A DNA stretch of 64,000 nucleotides. It comes from an uncultured Actinomycetes bacterium. Lineage in GTDB: Bacteria > Actinomycetota > Thermoleophilia > UBA2241. Location: positions 45,331-109,330 of the forward strand of contig CAWHYB010000006.1 in NCBI GenBank assembly GCA_963833555.1, read 5' to 3'. The notes below the pieces were generated by a model. That model ran no database searches, was not told the origin of the DNA, and saw only the letters and a list, made by a program, of their open reading frames with translations. Positions 35,444 to 63,958 of this stretch are shown here, one piece after another; within the stretch, counting starts at the first letter, position 1, and every line of letters begins with the position of its first letter. A program made the translations under genes and the position numbers.

Positions 35444-36449
35444 TTAGACCGGCGTCCCCAGCACCTGCAGCGCCTTGAGCGTGACCCAGCGGCTGGGCTC
35501 GCCCTTGGTCTCGATGTCGACCACGAAGCGGCCGTTGAAGGTGTCCTGGAGCTTCCAGCGGCCGTCGGCGTCGGCTTTGCCGGCGACGAGCGCGCGCGCT
35601 TCGCGCGCGCGCTCGTCGCCCGCCTCGCCCGAGCCTCGTCGAGGATCCCGAGGATCTCGAGCACGTCGGTCTGGTACATGAGCGGGAAGCCGAGTCGCTT
35701 CCAGCCCGGCTTGGAGTCGCGCGCAAGGTCGTGGCTGCGCTTGTGGACGTGGTGGCGCAGCATGAACTCCGCGCCGTCGTCGAGCATGCGCCGCACCGCG
35801 GGCGAGCGGCGCTCCGGCGGGATCTCGGCGAGCGCCTTGAGCGTCTTGACGACGCCCATGTGGCAGGTGTGGCGTCCCCAGCACATCTCCCAGGGCTCGT
35901 AGGGCCAGCCGGTCGGCGCCTCGCCGTCGCCGTCGTCGAAGCGCGCGTAGGTCGTGAGCCAGTCGATGCCGGCCTGCACGCGCGGGTCGTCGAGCATGCC
36001 CAGGCGGATGAGGCTGAAGACCAGGTTGCCGGTCAGGCAGGGGATGACGCGGCTGTGCAGGCCGCCGCCCTCCTTCTTGGCGCGGTCGGTGGCAAAGCCG
36101 CCGGAGAGGCGGTCCTGCGCGTCGCGCAGGACCGCCTCGCACCCGCGTCGCACGCGCTCGTCGGCGCCGTCGGCGCCGAGCTCGGCGAGGATGAGGAGCT
36201 GCCAGACCGTGCCGCTGTACTTGGCCGTGTAGAAGCGGTCGCGGCCCTCCCAGTGGCCGTCCTCGCCCTGCGCGGCGAGGATCGCGGCACGGCGCCGCGC
36301 GACATGATCTCGCGCCGTGCCGCGGTCGCCTCGGGTGAGTCGGGCGACGATCCGAGCAGCCCGGTCAGGGTGAAGAAGCGCACCGACGGATCGTCGCCCG
36401 CGAGCAGCCAGGAGAAGATCTCGGAGCTGTCAGCGCTCGTCGTGACCAT
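35444..36449 (-). CDS. Prenyltransferase/squalene-cyclase-repeat-like alpha-barrel protein of unknown function; frameshifts near 36300 and 35640
   Basis: WLLAGDDPSVR, AQGEDGHW...YTAKYSGTVWQL, PCLTGN, LGFPLMYQTDVLEIL, GRWKL, SRWVTLKAL. Confidence 0.75.
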
Positions 36450-52244: not shown

Positions 52245-53915
52245 CTACGCCCCGATCACCCTGCTGAATGACGACAGCGTCTTGGCGTGGTCGGCGTCGC
52301 TGTGGACTGCCTGGACCTTCCATTTGTGGTAGTTGAGCGTGTTCGGCAGCGATACGTTGGCCTGGTAGGCGCTGTAGGTGCCGTAGTCGTGCAGGCGCGC
52401 CGTGACCGACGAGCGCAATACCCAGCTGGAATCGCGCCAGTCCCACGCGTAGACGCGCAGTTTGACGGCGCCCGAACCGGACGCGTGGTGCGGCTTGAGG
52501 TAGCCGGTGCACCGGTAATCCCAGCTAAGGATTCCGTTGCTCTCGCGAATGCGAGCCAGCGAGGGCCGTGTCAGCAGCGCCTCCGGCTTGATCGTGAGCG
52601 ACACCGGTGTCGCCGCAAGGTGGGCGGCGTTCCCGCCGAAGGAGAACTTCACGCCGATCTTGCGCTGGACATTGGGGAAGGAGACCGCGAAGTTCCCCAG
52701 GGAGTCGGTCGTCAGCCGCTTGGTGCCGCCGAAGCCGGTCTTCCCGACCGTCGCGCCGGCGATGCTGTTCAACTCCCCCGAGAGCGCTCCCTTGATCTTC
52801 ACCGTCGAGTTGTAGGCTGGGGTGCCCGAGGGTCCGCCGGCCGACAGCAGCGGGATCTCGAACAACCCCTTGTACACGTCGGGGTCTCCGTTGCGGCCGT
52901 CCGTCCACACGACCTCCTCGTTGCCGATCGACGGCTCAGTCTGGGCGGCGGGGTCGTTCGTCATCCGGCGTTCCTTCTTCGTCGCCAGGTCGTACAGGTA
53001 GATGTCCGAGCTCCCGTTGCGGTCGTCCTGGTAGGCGACCAGTACGTGGGGCTTGTTGCCGATGACCAAATTGCCGCGAGGGGTCTCGAAGACAAACGAG
53101 TGGGTGAAGATCTGGGGCGCCGTCTGGTTGTGGGCGTTCGTGGTGAGGCGCCGTTCGAGGCCGGCCTTGAGGTCGTAGGCGTAGATGTCCCAGTTGCCGT
53201 TGCGGTGGTCTTCGTACACGACCCAGTTCCCGCTGATCTGCGGGCAGCGCTGATCGGCCTTGCTGGTCGTCAGGCGCCGCGTCTTCAGGGTGCTCAGGCT
53301 CGTGAGGTAGATGTCCCAGTTGCCGTTGCGGTGGTCGGCGTAGACCACCGAGTCGCCCGAGATGGCCGGATCGATCTGATCGGCCGTGTTTGTCGTCACC
53401 GCTCCGCCGGTCGAGGACGACAGATCGAACCAGTGGATGTCCCAGTTGCCGTTCGGGGCGTCCTCGTAGACGACGGTCGAGCCGCTGATCGCCGGGTCGA
53501 GCTGGTCGCCGAGTCCGGTCGCGACCGGGGTCTCGGACGGCGCGACGGTCGGTGCGGGGGCCGGCGGCGGCGTGACCGTGCCGGCGTAGATGTCCCAGGT
53601 GCCGTCGCGATCGTCCTCCCAGACGATGGCGCCGCCCGCCGACGCCGGATGCCGCTGATTGCCGGCCGTGGCGTCGAGGAGGGTGGGGTCGGGAACCGTC
53701 AGCCAGAGGTGCCAGCCGAACTCGGTGCCCTCCTCCCACAGCGTCTGCCCGAAGCCGTACGCGCACGGAGCGTCTTGAGTGGTCGGTCCTGTGGCGAGCG
53801 GCGTCTCGGTGACCCAGGGCACGGCCGCGTGGGCGGGACCGGCGGCGAGTGCGACACCCAGGGCTGCGAGCAGGACGCAGACAGCAATCGAGACAGATCG
53901 GACGGAGCGCGACAT
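52245..53915 (-). CDS. Secreted TolB-like beta-propeller protein (Methanosarcina-type repeats) with an unnamed C-terminal module
   Basis: Signal peptide; six repeats of Q..P.I.G..VV(W/Y).D.RNGNWDIY; C-terminal GYLKPHH...WKVQAVH.DADHAKT domain. Confidence 0.82.
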   Translation of the reverse strand: MSRSVRSVSIAVCVLLAALGVALAAGPAHAAVPWVTETPLATGPTTQDAPCAYGFGQTLWEEGTEFGWHLWLTVPDPTLLDATAGNQRHPASAGGAIVWEDDRDGTWDIYAGTVTPPPAPAPTVAPSETPVATGLGDQLDPAISGSTVVYEDAPNGNWDIHWFDLSSSTGGAVTTNTADQIDPAISGDSVVYADHRNGNWDIYLTSLSTLKTRRLTTSKADQRCPQISGNWVVYEDHRNGNWDIYAYDLKAGLERRLTTNAHNQTAPQIFTHSFVFETPRGNLVIGNKPHVLVAYQDDRNGSSDIYLYDLATKKERRMTNDPAAQTEPSIGNEEVVWTDGRNGDPDVYKGLFEIPLLSAGGPSGTPAYNSTVKIKGALSGELNSIAGATVGKTGFGGTKRLTTDSLGNFAVSFPNVQRKIGVKFSFGGNAAHLAATPVSLTIKPEALLTRPSLARIRESNGILSWDYRCTGYLKPHHASGSGAVKLRVYAWDWRDSSWVLRSSVTARLHDYGTYSAYQANVSLPNTLNYHKWKVQAVHSDADHAKTLSSFSRVIGA

Positions 53916-55856: not shown

Positions 55857-55945
55857 GACGGCAACCTCCACGGATGTCGATGGCTGTTTGAGGTCAGTAC
55901 CCATGGCTGCTCTGTTGCAGACAAGCGCGCTGAATGAAACCGGCG

Positions 55946-56034
55946 GCCTAGAACAGGTCGGTGACCGTCGCTGAGATCGCTTCGTCGACGCGCTCGGGGC
56001 AGTCGGTGGCCGTGACGTCGCAGAAGCTGCGCTC
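55946..56034 (-). pseudogene. Orphan 3' end of a paralogue of the Cas4-like nuclease at 60436-61080 (diverged direct repeat)
   Basis: SFCDVTATDCPERVDEAISATVTDLF* vs AWCDVTASDCPERVDEALSVTVTDLF*; 71/89 nt identical to 60434-60522 by manual alignment, including the stop codon. Confidence 0.85.
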
Positions 56035-56167
56035 GCCTTGCCTTGAGCGTCCTGGCGGCCAACACGGAATGACGACAAGTCCTGGGATCCCATGGTCACG
56101 AGCAGCGTTTCGTCGTCTTGGGACCGCTCCGATGCCCGCGAGCTGGGTGGCGCCGTTGTCAGCCCCG

Positions 56168-58464: not shown

Positions 58465-58980
58465 TCAGAGACCCGCCAGCGTCCTTCGCACGTCCTTCAT
58501 CAGGATCATGAGCTGGAGTGGGTTCGCCGGCGACGGCTCGAAGCCGTGGCGCAGGTAGAAGGTCCGCGCCCGCTCATCCTTCGCGTGGACGACCACGATG
58601 CGTGCGCCGAGAATGACCGCAGCCTCGGCGCAACGCGCGAGCGCCTCGATCAGCATCGCGCTGCCGATACCGCGGCCCTGCTCGGTCCGGTCGACGGCCA
58701 AGCGGGCCAGAAGGATCGCCGGGATGTCGTGTGGCCCTTGCCCCTTGGCGGCTCGCTCGGTCGCGTCCTCTGCGGCCAAACTCGTCGCCGCCAGGCTGAA
58801 GTACGCGACTACGCGGCCGTTGCGCACGGCCACGTAGGTCCTCGACTTGCCGGCCCGTTGATCGGGGAGCGCCTGCCCGGTCAGGTAGTCGTTGAGCGGG
58901 CCGACGCCGCAGTCGAAGGCTGCGATCTCATGTGAGGGGTCGAGTGGGGAGGGACCGAGGAAGGGGTCAGCCGTCGGCAA
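58465..58980 (-). CDS. GNAT acetyltransferase toxin (TacT/AtaT/KacT type)
   Basis: FDCG..LNDYL, LLARLAVD...GRGIG, VHAKDERARTFYLRHGF; TTG start overlapping the antitoxin stop. Confidence 0.9.
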   Translation of the reverse strand: MPTADPFLGPSPLDPSHEIAAFDCGVGPLNDYLTGQALPDQRAGKSRTYVAVRNGRVVAYFSLAATSLAAEDATERAAKGQGPHDIPAILLARLAVDRTEQGRGIGSAMLIEALARCAEAAVILGARIVVVHAKDERARTFYLRHGFEPSPANPLQLMILMKDVRRTLAGL

Positions 58981-59242
58981 ACGGGCTGCGCCTAGAGGCG
59001 GCCTCGCGCAGACCGGGGAGGACGCGCGCGGGGCGGTCGAGGCGGGCGACGAACTCATCCCACTTGTCGGCGGGAACGACGAAGCGCGTCTGGTCGGCCA
59101 GCACTTCTTCGGCGGCACGCAGCGTCGCCTGCAGCATGAACTGACTGAGCGGCATGTGGCTGAGGCTGGCGGCCTGCTCGACGACCGCCTTCTCATCCTC
59201 GGTCACCCGGATGTTCAGAGATTTGTCCTTCACGACCGCCAT
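58967..59242 (-). CDS. DUF1778 ribbon-helix-helix antitoxin (TacA/AtaR/KacA type)
   Basis: LNIRVTEDEKAVVEQAA...LSQFML...AAEEVLAD...WDEFVARLDRP; GGAGG RBS. Confidence 0.92.
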   Translation of the reverse strand: MAVVKDKSLNIRVTEDEKAVVEQAASLSHMPLSQFMLQATLRAAEEVLADQTRFVVPADKWDEFVARLDRPARVLPGLREAASRRSPFADG

Positions 59243-59280
59243 GGCGGCATGACCTCCGACTGGATTTGACTGCGCGGACA

Positions 59281-59309
59281 GTGTACCCACAGGTGGTGGG
59301 CATGTACAC
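59281..59309 (-). promoter_or_regulatory. TA operon promoter/operator with GTAC half-sites
   Basis: Inverted repeat GTGTAC(59281)...GTACAC(59304); on the - strand TGTACA-N17-TACACT, so the half-sites coincide with the -35 and -10 boxes. Confidence 0.65.
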
Positions 59310-59398
59310 ACAATGTCAACACAAGCTTGCGACAAGACCAGTAGCGGCTCGGCCTCGTCGCCGTCGTCTTTACGGCTTGAACTTGGTGAGTAGCTACC

Positions 59399-59536
59399 TC
59401 CCTGAGCTACCTCTCACTCGAGGGCCTGCAGGACGCCATCGGCCTGCCCGCCGAGCTGTTCACGCGCGAGGGCTTCACCTGCGAGTATCCCGTCCCCGTC
59501 CCAGAGCAACCGGAGATGGAGAAGCTGCGCTTCGGG
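59399..59536 (+). pseudogene. purF: Degenerate 3' fragment of amidophosphoribosyltransferase
   Basis: SLSYLSLEGLQDAIGLPAELFTREGFTCEYPVPVP...EKLRF matches the PurF C-terminus (DSLxYLSLEGL...CxACFTGEYP); the Cys ligands are lost and there is no upstream gene body. Confidence 0.75.
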
Positions 59537-59615
59537 CGTGGGGCGGCCTGATCACAACACGGGAGCCGTGCACGGCGTAGTCGACTGGAGGTCTGTTGAC
59601 GATTCGCCTCGCCCG

Positions 59616-59698
59616 TTGACTTGGCGCCTCAGGAGGGGATAATCACTCCACTGTCCCCGTGCTCGACGCGGGGCGCGAAGCCGCCTCCGGGCGGCTTC
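59616..59698 (+). ncRNA. Candidate short two-hairpin RNA with its promoter, upstream of the NYN gene
   Basis: TTGACT-N16-GATAAT (59616-59643); hairpin 59655-59673; perfect 9-bp hairpin GAAGCCGCC-TCCG-GGCGGCTTC (59677-59698) followed by a pyrimidine-rich tail. Confidence 0.4.
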
Positions 59699-59724
59699 TG
59701 CTTCATCTGGGGGGATTTGTCACC

Positions 59725-60389
59725 TTGACAGAGAGTGTCGAGCTGAAGCCGAGCACCTCCGTGTACATCGATGGCTTCAACTTCTACTACGCGGCTTTCC
59801 ACCGGGCGAACTTCGGCTCCTACAAGTGGCTCGATCTTCCCGCGTTGTGCAAGGTCGCCTTGCCTCGCAACGACATTCAGCTCGTTCGGTACTTCACTGC
59901 ACCACTCAATCCGTCGCACGGGCGGGCGGGTCAGCGCGCCAGGCAGGATACCTACCTCCATGCTCTCCACACGCTGCCCGGGCTCTCGCTCCACTTCGGC
60001 CAGTTCGTCGAGCATGCGAAGACACAGAGGTTGGTTCATCCCCCGAGAGGTGCGGCGAGAGCGGCCGAGGTGTGGGTGCCAGAGGAGAAGGGCAGCGACG
60101 TGAACCTCGCCACGTACTTGCTGCTCGATGCGTTCAAGGCCGCGTGTGACGTGGCTGTGGTCGTGTCGAACGACGCTGACCTGCTGGAGCCGGTGCGGAT
60201 CGTGCGTGAGGAACTCGGGCGAACTGTCGGCGTGTTGCGGGTCGAGGGCGGTCAGCGACGCTGCATATTCGCCGGACGCGTCGACTTCATCCGGCCCTTG
60301 CGCGAGCGGCATTTCGCTGTAAGCCAGTTGCCCGCAGTCGTGGCCGACTCAAGAGCAAGCAGTTCAGGTGCCCGCCAGAATGGGCATGA
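59725..60389 (+). CDS. NYN-domain (PIN-like, LabA/DUF88 clan) ribonuclease; indel near 60352
   Basis: YIDGFNFYY, YKWLDL, VRYFTA, EEKGSDVNLA, VVSNDADL; the shifted frame gives the natural end KQFRCPPEWA*. Confidence 0.87.
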
Positions 60390-60435
60390 ACTGCCGCCGC
60401 CCGTATGGGCGGCGGATGTAGCGTCCTTCGCCCGC

Positions 60436-61080
60436 CTAGAACAAGTCCGTGACGGTCACCGACAGCGCCTCGTCGACCCGCTCGGGGCAGTCGGACGCAG
60501 TGACGTCGCACCACGCGCACTCCGAGGCGCTCGCGGCCTTCGGCGGCGCCTCGGCGGCCGCGGCGACGTCCATGTACTCCTTCAGCATGGCGCGGAAGCG
60601 GTCGTCGACCTCGGACGCCGCGATCGCGACCGCGTCGTCGCGGTACTGCACCTCGCCGCGCAGCCGCCGGCCCCGGCAGTGCACGACGCTGGCCGGCAGC
60701 GCGACCATGTAGGTGAGCACCTGCAGCTTGTCGGAGGTGCGCTCCTTGCCGGTCTTGCAGTCGATCACGAAGGCGTCGTCGCCCTTGACGGCCACGATGT
60801 CGGCCTTGCCGGCCAGCGTGGCCCCGCTGGCGCCCTTGAGCTTGAAGGCGTTCTGGCCCTCGAGGTAGACCGCGTAGCCCTGCGCCCGCAGCTCGTCGGC
60901 GCGGGCGTGGAGGAGCTGCGTGTGCTCGGCCGTCCACCTGGCCAGGTCGAAGTCGCTGGGCAGCTTGGCGTAGGAGTGGTTGGCCCGGAACCAGAGCTTC
61001 CAGCGGCACGACTCCTCGCCGGCCATCTGCTTGGTCAGCCAGGTGACCCAGACGTAGGTGCTCGATCGTGGTTCGGCCAT
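60436..61080 (-). CDS. PD-(D/E)XK (RecB/Cas4-like) nuclease with a four-Cys Fe-S staple
   Basis: N-terminal SCRWKLW Cys; GKAD, IDCKTG, QVLTY motifs; C-terminal CAWC-x6-C. Confidence 0.85.
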   Translation of the reverse strand: MAEPRSSTYVWVTWLTKQMAGEESCRWKLWFRANHSYAKLPSDFDLARWTAEHTQLLHARADELRAQGYAVYLEGQNAFKLKGASGATLAGKADIVAVKGDDAFVIDCKTGKERTSDKLQVLTYMVALPASVVHCRGRRLRGEVQYRDDAVAIAASEVDDRFRAMLKEYMDVAAAAEAPPKAASASECAWCDVTASDCPERVDEALSVTVTDLF

Positions 61081-61184
61081 GGCGTGACTCCCGGGATCGC
61101 CGCAGGGACTACAAGGCTACTCGCGGGCGGGGACGGAAGAAAGGGGCGCCGCCGGCGGCGAGTTCGGCGAGGATGAGCTGCCAA

Positions 61185-63191
61185 CTACTCGGCGGAGAGC
61201 ATACGGATGCCGCACTCCTGCAGCCAGCCTGCGGTCTCATCGAGTTCGGGCATCGGCGGGATGAAGATGATCGAGCAGTCACGCCCGCGGGTGAGCAGCA
61301 CGCGATAGGCGTTCAGGCGGAGCTGGAAGGGATCCCGAACGTGAGCTGAACGAGCGTGCCGTTTCGCCCAGGCGTTGGACCACCGGCTACGAGCGCGCAC
61401 GAGGTCCAAGCCCCACGCGAGCAGGACGCCGTCGAGCTCCAGCCCCTGGGCGCCGAACTCGGTCACGCAATCTCGCAGATGGCGACAGGAGTACTGACTC
61501 GCGTGTTCGTTGTCGCCGTACCACGGTCCGAGGCGCAGGTTCTTCGTGTCATGCCATCCGTTGCGCACGCCCCAGTCTTCGAGCGCTTTGTCTCGGGATG
61601 AGGCTAGCAGGCCGAAACGAGCCTCCGGCGCGTCCGCGTAGCGAGCGCGCAGATAGTGACGCGCCTCGTTGAGGTCGCGCGTCATGCGCAGATGGTAGGC
61701 CTGCTGTTCAAGGCGGCTGGCCAGCTCGCGACAGTGCGCGGCGACTGAGCCCGCCTCGCCTTCGCACACCTCGTCCGGCCAGGCGCGATCATCCGCCAGT
61801 AGCCCGTCGACCCAGGCGTCGAGATCGGAACAGAAGTGGAAGCGGAGTTCGACTTGCAGGTCCAGCGCCTCGTCGGCAGTCAGCAGGGCGGGAAGGGTGG
61901 CGCCATCGCTATCGTCGCCGGCAAAGAACTCATCCAAGACCCGCTGTGGCGCATGGACAGTCCAGTCGTCGGGTCGACCGGCCTCAGCGAGCGCGCCGCG
62001 CCACTGTCCGAGACCCGCCTCCTCTCCGGTGTTGATCTCCTGGCCGGAACCGATGAGCCCAACGAGCACGCACCATTCCGGGATGCGCTCGCCGAATTCC
62101 ACGAACGCCTCTGGTTCAGAGCGGTGCTGACGCAGCTCGGGGTGCTTGGCGATCACCTGATCAAGGTCCCAAGCACGCTGTGCCTCGTCGTAGACAATCA
62201 CGTGCTGCGGAGGCACCGCGGCCTTGTCGCCGAGGTACTGCTTGACGTAGTTCTTCACGTCGCGAACGAAGGTCTTGCCACTGCCGCCAGCGTCGCGCAG
62301 CTCGTACTGCAGCACCTGCACCAGCGGTCCGTTCCCCGAGAGGAAGATCGCCGGCGCGGACGGTTTGCCGCCAGCACGCTCCACCGCGAGGTCATCCAGA
62401 GCGGGGTTGTGGACGGCGCTGAGCCCGACAAGGGTCTTGCCCGACCCGGGTACCCCCGTGACGAGCACGAGATGCCGTGAATGCGTGTGCGCGGCCTCGT
62501 GGGCGATGCGAGCGATCTCATCGATGGCCGGCTGGGTTGCGGCGCGGGCACGATGAATCGGTCTGATCTTGTTGTCCAAGAACAGCTCGCGAGCGGCCTG
62601 GACGAGAGTGGGGAGTGGGCAGTACGCGTCACGCGCAAGGAACTCATCGGCGGTCAGTGCACCATCGTCCCACGGTCGCTGGAGATCCTGGATCAGCTCG
62701 TGGAGGGCGTCGGGGCCGGCGATGTGAACGCCATCGTGCACCCCTGCGTACCCGTGCGCCCGCGTCGGCACGACGACCGCATGAACTTCTCGTTCGGCAC
62801 AGTGTCGGTGATAACAGCGAAGGTCGCGCGCATACGCGGCCGCTTGGTCGAGATCCGCCTGTTCGGGTTCTTGCTTGCCCTTGAGCTCGAGGACAACGAT
62901 CGCGCCACTGACGAGCAGCACGACGTCGGGTCGCCGCGACTCCATCGGCAGTTCGTACTCGAGAATGGCAGTGTAGGAGTCGGCGAGGTCGTCGAGGACG
63001 ACGACCTCGCCGACCTCATGCTGGAGTTTCGGAATCGACTCGTCCCAGGCGAAGACTTGCGACTCGCTCACATCGGCGAGGAAATCCTCGAGCGAGATGC
63101 GGACGATCCTGGGCTCGGTCTGCGAGAACGTCGGGAAGTCGCTCTCCCAACCGCAGCGAGCGCGTGCCGCGTCACTCGGCTTGATCACCAC
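61185..63191 (-). CDS. DUF2075 (Schlafen group 3-type helicase) protein with an N-terminal PD-(D/E)XK nuclease domain
   Basis: RRPDVVL...LELKG...QAAAY nuclease; GVPGSGKT Walker A, YDEAQRAW Walker B, GSGQEI, EFGAQGLELD, NAYRVLLTRGR. Confidence 0.88.
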   Translation of the reverse strand: MVIKPSDAARARCGWESDFPTFSQTEPRIVRISLEDFLADVSESQVFAWDESIPKLQHEVGEVVVLDDLADSYTAILEYELPMESRRPDVVLLVSGAIVVLELKGKQEPEQADLDQAAAYARDLRCYHRHCAEREVHAVVVPTRAHGYAGVHDGVHIAGPDALHELIQDLQRPWDDGALTADEFLARDAYCPLPTLVQAARELFLDNKIRPIHRARAATQPAIDEIARIAHEAAHTHSRHLVLVTGVPGSGKTLVGLSAVHNPALDDLAVERAGGKPSAPAIFLSGNGPLVQVLQYELRDAGGSGKTFVRDVKNYVKQYLGDKAAVPPQHVIVYDEAQRAWDLDQVIAKHPELRQHRSEPEAFVEFGERIPEWCVLVGLIGSGQEINTGEEAGLGQWRGALAEAGRPDDWTVHAPQRVLDEFFAGDDSDGATLPALLTADEALDLQVELRFHFCSDLDAWVDGLLADDRAWPDEVCEGEAGSVAAHCRELASRLEQQAYHLRMTRDLNEARHYLRARYADAPEARFGLLASSRDKALEDWGVRNGWHDTKNLRLGPWYGDNEHASQYSCRHLRDCVTEFGAQGLELDGVLLAWGLDLVRARSRWSNAWAKRHARSAHVRDPFQLRLNAYRVLLTRGRDCSIIFIPPMPELDETAGWLQECGIRMLSAE

Positions 63192-63445
63192 GTTGTCGCG
63201 ACTGTCCGCCCCCGGTTCACGATAGTGACCCTACGGCAGCGCCGCTACGACGGCAATCGATCTGTTCTCCACAAGGGTTCCGATCATCGTCAACTGCTTG
63301 ATAGAAGGCTCGCTCCCAGTGGGCCGACGGGGCTCCGAGCGGTTCGCTCTGCGATACAGCCGATCGCACTGTGCACTAGACGATCCTATTTTGATCGTGG
63401 GAGACTCGCCCCAGGCGGACCGAACCCCGAGCCGAGGAGGTTTCC

Positions 63446-63958
63446 ATGGGCGAGCTTCTCGCAGTCGCGTGCGAGTCCTGCGATGACCCGATGATCCCCA
63501 ACGTCAGCACACTCGACGACGATGGTTGCGGCTGGATCTGCATCAACCCGGTCTGTCCGCAGCAGCATGCCGAGGAACTCGAGCCCGGCGACCTCGTGGA
63601 GGCTGGCGTGCCCGCCTACCTCGCCGGCAGGCTGGCGCGGCTTATCGACTCCTATGTGGAGCGCGATCGGGTGCCATTCAGCTCTCACGAGCGGGCGCGG
63701 GTCGTCAGTGTGTCGCTCATCGATCAGGTTCGCGAGCTGCGGCGGCGCGCGGGACGCGCCGCCGCAGACGCCGAGCGGCTCGGCGACGACCTGGTGGTGC
63801 CATTCACGAGCAACGACTTCAGTGTCGCACAAGAGAGCAAGCAGGCCTTGGCCATCGCCGCCGCGCTCTGCCGTTCGTTGCAGCGTGGCGCCGAAGATGT
63901 GGAGCAGCATCTGACTTCGATCGATCCGCAGCTCGACGGGCTGCAAGGTTGGGTCTAG
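63446..63958 (+). CDS. Hypothetical protein with an N-terminal zinc-ribbon-like motif and a helical C-terminus
   Basis: AGGAGG RBS 5 nt upstream; CESC...CGWICINPVC; amphipathic/coiled-coil C-half. Confidence 0.7.
   Translation: MGELLAVACESCDDPMIPNVSTLDDDGCGWICINPVCPQQHAEELEPGDLVEAGVPAYLAGRLARLIDSYVERDRVPFSSHERARVVSVSLIDQVRELRRRAGRAAADAERLGDDLVVPFTSNDFSVAQESKQALAIAAALCRSLQRGAEDVEQHLTSIDPQLDGLQGWV

Follow-up and report, generated by a model that had tools for sequence, protein, structure and literature searches.

Do a nuclease-helicase gene and a Cas4-like nuclease gene that lie side by side in an uncultured actinobacterium form a two-gene anti-phage system, or are they merely neighbours? The question is raised by a 64,000-nucleotide stretch of contig CAWHYB010000006.1 (assembly GCA_963833555.1; the whole stretch is called the window, and positions are given in its coordinates). 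Here, gene A, a minus-strand open reading frame (ORF) of 668 amino acids (aa) at 61185..63191, encodes a PD-(D/E)XK nuclease fused to a DUF2075/Schlafen-group-3 helicase of superfamily 1B (SF1B), while gene B, an intact 214-aa ORF at 60436..61080 on the same strand, encodes a RecB-family, Cas4-like nuclease with a four-cysteine cluster. The initial annotation, made from the sequence alone, had proposed the pair as a candidate anti-phage system, and much of its description stands: the genes are co-oriented and separated by exactly 104 nucleotides (nt), A carries intact PD-(D/E)XK and SF1-like ATPase motifs and less GC-biased codons than B (GC content at third codon positions, GC3, of 0.78 versus 0.98), B has the motifs, cysteines and Pfam matches of a solo RecB/Cas4-like nuclease, and the neighbouring genes do include an NYN gene (PF01936) and a toxin-antitoxin pair (TacA, PF08681, with a GNAT toxin). 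As for the system itself, A remains a plausible anti-phage nuclease-helicase: it belongs to PDC-S41, and its surroundings are rich in toxin-antitoxin and defence genes. The pairing with B finds no support, since the pair is not conserved. With a probability of roughly 0.75, we instead read the locus as two independent genes that were juxtaposed by recombination in a variable, island-like region, A being a horizontally acquired PDC-S41 gene and B a resident gene for a solo Cas4-like nuclease.

The evidence that carries this reading comes from the neighbourhoods of both genes in other genomes. A search of one genome per species located A orthologues (60-85% identity) at 21 loci, which were taken with up to 6 kb of flanking DNA; distant homologues (38-58% identity) with 6-kb flanks raised the set to 29 A-family loci, and 33 further PF09848 loci brought it to 62 other A-family/DUF2075 loci in total. 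No B homologue was found by tblastn at the 21 orthologue loci. A hidden Markov model (HMM) of the B family, built from 105 proteins, gave only a marginal match to A's own nuclease domain in six-frame translations of the 29 loci and detected no B-family gene at the 33 PF09848 loci (best E = 0.13). As positive controls, the same HMM found B at 1e-84 or better and a 36-codon stub of B at 6.5e-6. Overall, a B-family gene lies within 6 kb of none of the A-family/DUF2075 loci (0/62). A scan for the RecB motif combined with CxxCx(4-7)C returned a single gene, a 400-aa member of a different family located 4.6 kb from one A homologue, which is about what chance would produce.

The view from B is the same. 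A is present at none of the eight other B loci, five of which hold orthologues at 70-84% identity and three distant homologues. Whole-genome searches detected B in three of the 20 genomes with A, in no case next to it. In one metagenome-assembled genome (MAG), A (L001) and B (L026) are 17.5 kb apart on the same contig, and in another they are on different contigs. Of two B-carrying genomes that were searched whole (B at 84% and 76% identity), neither has a PDC-S41 gene. Lastly, when 1 kb of junction DNA was searched against 40 relatives, 14 gave matches to the A side or the B side alone, and in none of the 40 did a match extend across the gap. The initial annotation had tied its proposal to conservation of the pair, and the co-occurrence statistics that it had called for run against it. 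With five conservation tests negative, the two-gene system is not supported.

The 104-nt spacer between the genes (61081..61184, minus strand) bears the marks of the junction. In blastn comparisons, homology with A orthologues ends within 5-25 nt of the A stop codon, at about 61190-61210, and homology with one B locus (L022) extends from B as far as 61139. An element at about 61140-61105, ...TTCCGTCCCC...GCGAGTAGCCTTG..., is shared upstream of B with five other genomes, in which it is kept without A (alignment A3). Because it is conserved whatever the upstream gene, this element belongs to B; it plausibly serves as the promoter of B, in which TAGCCT would be a -10-like hexamer. Taken together, the end of A homology and the B-linked element identify the spacer as the seam of two separately inherited pieces. 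The weak hairpin with a T-rich tract, which the initial annotation thought might separate the two transcripts, is indeed present as a GC hairpin on the minus strand (61160-61147), but it does not rise above chance: the number of terminator-like sites is 2, versus 2.0 expected in shuffled sequences, and the gap folds no better than shuffles (z = +0.96). The T-rich tail of the hairpin also overlaps the B-linked element. An intergenic terminator is therefore not supported. In the same spacer, a GC-rich piece of about 40 nt (61145-61183) has matches of 85-93% at C6:81493-81534, corresponding to window positions 36163-36204, and in several relatives, in some cases at a distance of a few kb from homologues of A or B. 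Either a short dispersed repeat or chance similarity may account for this.

What kind of protein does A encode? Judged by its conserved residues, the N-terminal domain is a RecB/Cas4-type PD-(D/E)XK nuclease with a QxxxY motif. Its core, at residues ~74-127 (62811..62972, minus strand), contains E78/E80, D89, E102-x-K104 and Q116...Y120, all of them invariant columns in alignment A1, which comprises 21 sequences (A and 20 homologues from other genomes, 38-85% identity). The C-terminal part matches PF09848 (SLFN-g3_helicase, formerly DUF2075) over residues 239-645 at 1.1e-53, and its helicase residues are likewise invariant in alignment A1, namely the Walker A motif G246 V P G S G K252 T253 (62433..62456, minus strand), the Walker B region VIVYDEAQR with D335 E336 ... 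Q338 R339 (62175..62201, minus strand) and the arginine-rich motif with R635/R637. There is no Pfam match to an AlbA_2-type Schlafen core nuclease at the N terminus, and a sequence search of solved structures gave no match for A. In an AlphaFold model built on alignment A1 (mean predicted local distance difference test score, pLDDT, 82.6; predicted template modelling score, pTM, 0.82), the nuclease core is formed by strands 74-79, 90-94 and 97-104 and a helix at 111-127. The top solved folds for this model are SLFN11 and SLFN14 (7zel, 9jr9), RecD, UPF1, coronavirus nsp13 and T4 Dda, which places A among the SF1B-type helicases.

The PADLOC check that the initial annotation had suggested gave a clear family assignment. 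A matches the PDC-S41 profile of PADLOC-DB v2.0.0 (PDLC05014) at 3e-118 with 393.9 bits, and since residues 17-654 align to model positions 8-633 of 657, this is a full-length match. The name PDC-S41 denotes a single-gene "phage defence candidate" in PADLOC. A is thus a member of an already catalogued family and not a new system. The only other PADLOC matches of A at E ≤ 10 were weak ones to Cas4 models, over residues 75-124, on A's own nuclease motif. A literature search found no paper that names PDC-S41.

The codon usage of B (GC3 0.98) is native, that of A appears imported, and A thus looks horizontally acquired. A profile search found PDC-S41 in 10 of 401 sampled Actinomycetota genomes, 42 of which carry a PF09848 gene of any kind, and full-length A homologues of about 32% identity are located on megaplasmids of the Bacillus cereus group. 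Elsewhere, the neighbourhoods of A homologues include HicAB-like, VapBC-like, RelE/ParE-like and HEPN/nucleotidyltransferase-like genes (named from ORF translations only) as well as NYN and AAA_21/SMC_N ATPase genes (confirmed by Pfam). No gene is common to all 29 A-family loci, B being found at 0/29, and the homologues at 38-58% identity have neither B nor NYN nor gene C, a divergent upstream neighbour of A described below, within their 6-kb flanks. Because these homologues lack B, C and NYN, and because B is absent from 17 of the 20 A-carrying genomes, we take A to work alone.

Two further observations concern the surroundings of A homologues. In several genomes, the intact A gene is followed by two to four copies of fragments of its 3' end (residues ~490-665; L020:8816-13457, L013:7718-7975, L021:9544-9735 and G442:C11:415873-421859), which appear to be remnants of successive cassette replacement or insertion at that end. 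On a Bacillus cereus plasmid (NZ_CP095378.1, L081), a second DUF2075 gene, annotated as 'DNA/RNA helicase domain' (L081 positions 1-2556), forms a row with genes for an HNH endonuclease and a MazG-like nucleoside triphosphate pyrophosphohydrolase at a distance of about 3.5 kb from the PDC-S41 homologue, which fits the remark in the initial annotation that DUF2075 genes accompany MazG-like ones.

A clue to the target of the A family comes from orthologues that are joined to an SRA domain. In two orthologues that are 73% identical to A over the shared part, SAD_SRA (PF02182) is fused in one frame to the C terminus (L015:5986-8679 and L011:6004-8595, at 2.6e-45 and 2.5e-44), and at two more loci it directly follows A (L020:8020-8692 and L014:6769-7440, ~1e-45). 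SRA domains, which recognise methylated or hydroxymethylated cytosine in DNA, are characteristic of modification-dependent restriction enzymes. Their union with A orthologues suggests DNA as the substrate of the family, with ATP-dependent, type IV-like enzymes among its members; in other words, the fusions point to DNA-directed and partly modification-dependent restriction by the A family. No SRA domain was found in A or an adjoining gene, in the rest of the window or in this genome, a MAG of 52% completeness, and modification dependence is therefore not predicted for A itself. Fusions of nucleases with SRA, PUA and DUF3427 domains and the DUF2075 NTPases in their neighbourhood have been covered previously (PMC6765204).

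B, in turn, matches PDDEXK_1 at 4e-9 and, marginally, Cas_Cas4 at 7e-5 (23.3 versus a gathering score of 22.7) in Pfam, and several Cas4 models in PADLOC at about 6e-9. Among 105 family members, the residues C25, E74, D94, D107-x-K109, Q120...Y124 and C188-x2-C191-x6-C198 are conserved at ≥95%, with the codons of the three C-terminal cysteines located at 60487-60519 (minus strand). These residues make up a complete Cas4/AddB nuclease signature, with the one-plus-three cysteine pattern (C25, C188, C191, C198) of a [4Fe-4S] cluster. A sequence search of solved structures gave only a marginal Cas4 match (4r5q, E = 0.064). Against the NCBIfam Cas4 equivalog TIGR00372, B scores 34.2 bits, below the cut-off of 65; Cas1 (PF01867), found in seven control genomes, was not detected in this genome, which is only 52% complete. 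Together, these two results mark B as a solo Cas4-like nuclease and not a CRISPR component. Nor were cas genes seen at the eight other B loci, three of which were inspected through annotated Pfam tables and five by reading ORF translations.

The B family counts 113 homologues at E ≤ 1e-3, nearly all of 214-216 aa, and the few sources that name an organism include Planctomycetota, Chloroflexota, SAR202 and a cyanobacterium besides actinobacterial MAGs. B has no fixed partner: its context differs across all eight other loci, where the neighbours, some annotated and some recognised from translations, include corrinoid-methyltransferase-like genes, a Vsr-like gene with VapBC-like genes, an XRE/ImmA operon and an NmrA-like gene. 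Solo Cas4 genes in general have been described as mostly vertically inherited, with a function in repair or defence that is unknown, and as sometimes linked to UvrD-like or COG1205 helicases, not to DUF2075 (Hudaiberdiev et al. 2017, PMC5704561). The possibility that B is a phage gene was rejected, given 0 matches in 50,697 phage records.

How, then, could a defence-type gene have come to lie beside B? A second copy of the 3' end of B, comprising the last ~36 codons, lies 4.5 kb downstream on the same strand (55941..56058, direct repeat D4 with 60429-60546, 82 nt at 83% identity); its translation matches residues 179-214 of B at 67% identity and is recognised by the B-family HMM at 6.5e-6. The repeat brackets an amidohydrolase gene, TacAT, a conserved fragment (59393-59551) and the NYN gene. 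At other loci, integrase genes are found near the 3' end of B, in one case directly after B (L025, from translation) and in another about 400 nt away (L032, annotated PF00589). The repeat and the integrases suggest that elements insert at the 3' end of B. Seen in this way, B seems to be a resident anchor gene with accessory DNA on both sides, a hot spot for island insertion, which would explain how a defence-type gene ended up next to it.

A different gene recurs at A loci. Gene C (63446..63958, plus strand) is divergent from A and has a GC3 of 0.81; its 170-aa product consists of a zinc ribbon and a long helical hairpin. Invariant cysteines mark the N terminus (C9, C12, C28, C32 and C37; alignment A2), and the structural model (pLDDT 80) shows small beta-hairpins followed by the long helical hairpin. 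C has no match in Pfam, PADLOC or NCBIfam, and a fold search returned generic helical hairpins only (E > 0.8). It lies divergently upstream of A at 11 of the 21 close A loci and 0 of the 8 distant ones, which makes it the most frequent neighbour of A in other genomes, and 13 of 30 loci found with a C profile have A upstream. These roughly 30 C loci belong to Thermoleophilia-type MAGs, in which C adjoins A, precedes NYN (HEC-09) genes, or does both. The four A orthologues of highest identity (81-85%; L001-L003, L016) have no C, which occurs without A within 4 kb at no fewer than 10 loci (≥ 10) and is frameshifted in many copies. Because C is absent from both the closest and the distant A homologues and also occurs without A, the A-C link is recurrent in one clade and not obligate. 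About 55 nt upstream of C, a palindrome, ACGATC-N7-GATCGT, surrounds a -10-like TAnTTT (63377..63406, plus strand). In alignment A5 (10 loci), this block is invariant while its flanks diverge, and all blastn matches to C loci start at 63376-63379; it is a candidate promoter and operator of C.

The remaining neighbours complete the picture of a variable region. An NYN-domain gene on the plus strand (59659..60389; PF01936 at 1.3e-6, PADLOC candidate HEC-09 at 6.4e-32) is convergent with B. Its orthologues, 68-70% identical, adjoin A at two loci (L005 and L019), and paralogous NYN genes follow C at about eight; one such paralogue (L071) and the NYN protein of L005 match HEC-09. The frame of the window's NYN gene is shifted near 60345, so that the ORF runs past the stop of its homologues and antisense through B to 61176, and a homologue-like C terminus (...PPEWA, then stop) is found in another frame; the shift is either a frameshift or an assembly indel. 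Farther along, at 58465..59335 (minus strand), genes for a TacA antitoxin and a GNAT (TacT-like) toxin match PF08681 at 2e-20 and PF13508 at 3.5e-11. Tandem 126-nt coding repeats (four to five copies, 63-80% identity) occupy 52987-53659 on the minus strand and may encode a '...NGNWDIY...'-type repeat protein; a 792-aa ORF just past C, at window coordinates 64035-66413 and thus partly outside the window, encodes a similar one. No tRNA and no credible Rfam family was found within 50-64 kb.

With these data at hand, other readings of the locus can be weighed. One would have A and B as a two-gene defence that was put together recently in this lineage, with B as a second, iron-sulfur (Fe-S) nuclease that would process DNA ends made by A; its models would be AddAB or the pairs of Cas4-like proteins and helicases described by Hudaiberdiev et al. 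Such a design would be in keeping with the co-orientation, the short gap and the intact catalytic residues of both proteins; moreover, Cas4-like (pfam12705) nucleases do pair with UvrD-like SF1 and COG1205 SF2 helicases, COG1205 being associated with defence islands (PMC5704561), and ACE1 enzymes of the Cas4 family cooperate with Argonautes (PMC12094033). Nevertheless, we judge it extremely improbable: adjacency was seen at 0/62 other A-family/DUF2075 loci and 0/8 other B loci, 17 of 20 A-carrying genomes lack B, the codon usage is unlike (GC3 0.78 versus 0.98), B retains an upstream element that is found in genomes without A, and the only other RecB-like gene in the motif scan belongs to the different 400-aa family, 4.6 kb from its A homologue. 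A very unlikely alternative is that A is a host nuclease-helicase for DNA repair or replication restart and not an immune gene. The layout of a RecB-type nuclease with an SF1 helicase does recur in repair enzymes (RecB, AddA/B, Dna2), and the top folds for A include RecD and UPF1. However, the distribution is patchy (10/401 genomes), the codon usage looks foreign, homologues are borne on plasmids, the flanks are variable and rich in toxin-antitoxin genes, some orthologues are fused to SRA, and PADLOC picked PDC-S41 from its defence-island context.

It is also conceivable, if unlikely, that the functional unit consists of A and the divergent C, possibly with the NYN/HEC-09 RNase, and that C is a regulator, sensor or inhibitor of A. 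The reciprocal frequencies (11/21 A loci, 13/30 C loci), the similarly non-native GC3 of A and C (0.78 and 0.81), the invariant palindromic, promoter/operator-like element of C and the presence of NYN/HEC-09 genes beside A in L005 and L019 and after C at about eight loci would agree with this. Yet C is found with neither the four closest A orthologues nor the homologues at 38-58% identity, stands without A within 4 kb at ≥ 10 loci, is often frameshifted and has no recognisable fold or family, and its co-location with A in one clade, the Thermoleophilia-type MAGs, may merely reflect a shared island. A more far-reaching version, which we consider rather doubtful, would make PDC-S41 the motor-nuclease core of a modular and partly modification-dependent restriction, whose SRA-less members are controlled or targeted by C and NYN; the undescribed system would then be A with C, perhaps with NYN.

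Our preferred reading, that A and B are independent genes joined by recombination, has to be held against several points as well. The co-orientation and the 104-nt gap are compatible with read-through co-transcription of B from an A promoter. Since this MAG is 52% complete and contains assembly errors, statements of absence for the genome (Cas1, SRA) are weak. The PDC entries of PADLOC, PDC-S41 included, are candidates by genomic context. In favour of the reading, there is an experimental precedent in Nhi of Staphylococcus epidermidis (SERP2475), a PD-(D/E)XK nuclease with a DUF2075 helicase that blocks the accumulation of phage DNA (bioRxiv 10.1101/776245), followed by the 'Nhi-like' protein validated by Millman et al., so named for its identical organisation despite having no sequence identity to Nhi (bioRxiv 10.1101/2022.05.11.491447). 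Against it, A has no match to the PADLOC Nhi profile (PDLC02372) at E ≤ 10, and a Bacillus homologue that itself belongs to PDC-S41 (2.3e-115) matches the models for Nhi and AbiO no better than 2e-6, around the P-loop.

If A and B are indeed independent, A would act alone: ATP-driven translocation or unwinding on foreign DNA would feed the nuclease, which would degrade invading or replicating phage DNA. The SRA-bearing orthologues would recognise methylated or hydroxymethylated cytosine and thus be ATP-dependent, modification-dependent restriction enzymes. B, working without A just as A would work without B, would most likely process DNA ends by the 5'-3' exonuclease-type chemistry of the Cas4/AddB class, be it in repair, in recombination or in an unrelated defence. 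The main value of the analysis is that it clears a false lead, in that the apparent 'system' of a nuclease-helicase and a Cas4-like nuclease is a chance juxtaposition. A is a further actinobacterial member of a listed family of single-gene defence candidates, and the SRA fusions suggest that PDC-S41 attacks DNA, in some members modified DNA. The by-products of the analysis, namely the SRA fusions, the linkage with C and NYN in one clade and B as an apparent insertion hot spot, could guide work on PDC-S41.

How do the two proteins compare with known systems? B resembles the solo Cas4/pfam12705 nucleases (PMC5704561) in its RecB motifs, QxxxY, one-plus-three cysteines, position outside a CRISPR-cas locus and patchy occurrence in environmental bacteria; it differs in having no link to UvrD-like or COG1205 helicases and in forming its own uniform family of 214-216 aa. 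A shares the SLFN-g3_helicase domain (PF09848) with the group 3 Schlafen proteins SLFN11 and SLFN14, its top structural matches, but its N terminus is a RecB-type PD-(D/E)XK domain instead of the Schlafen core RNase, and global TM-scores are low (~0.3). With Nhi and 'Nhi-like', it has in common an N-terminal PD-(D/E)XK nuclease and a DUF2075 helicase of SF1B type in one polypeptide, as well as the form of a single-gene, island-borne defence. SRA-dependent type IV restriction is approached by the 73%-identical orthologues, which unite reader, nuclease and NTPase in one chain, whereas A itself has no SRA domain. Finally, the architecture of A shows no difference from PDC-S41, apart from the SRA tail that some orthologues have and A lacks: A is a full-length member of that profile, encoded by a stand-alone gene with no obligate partner.

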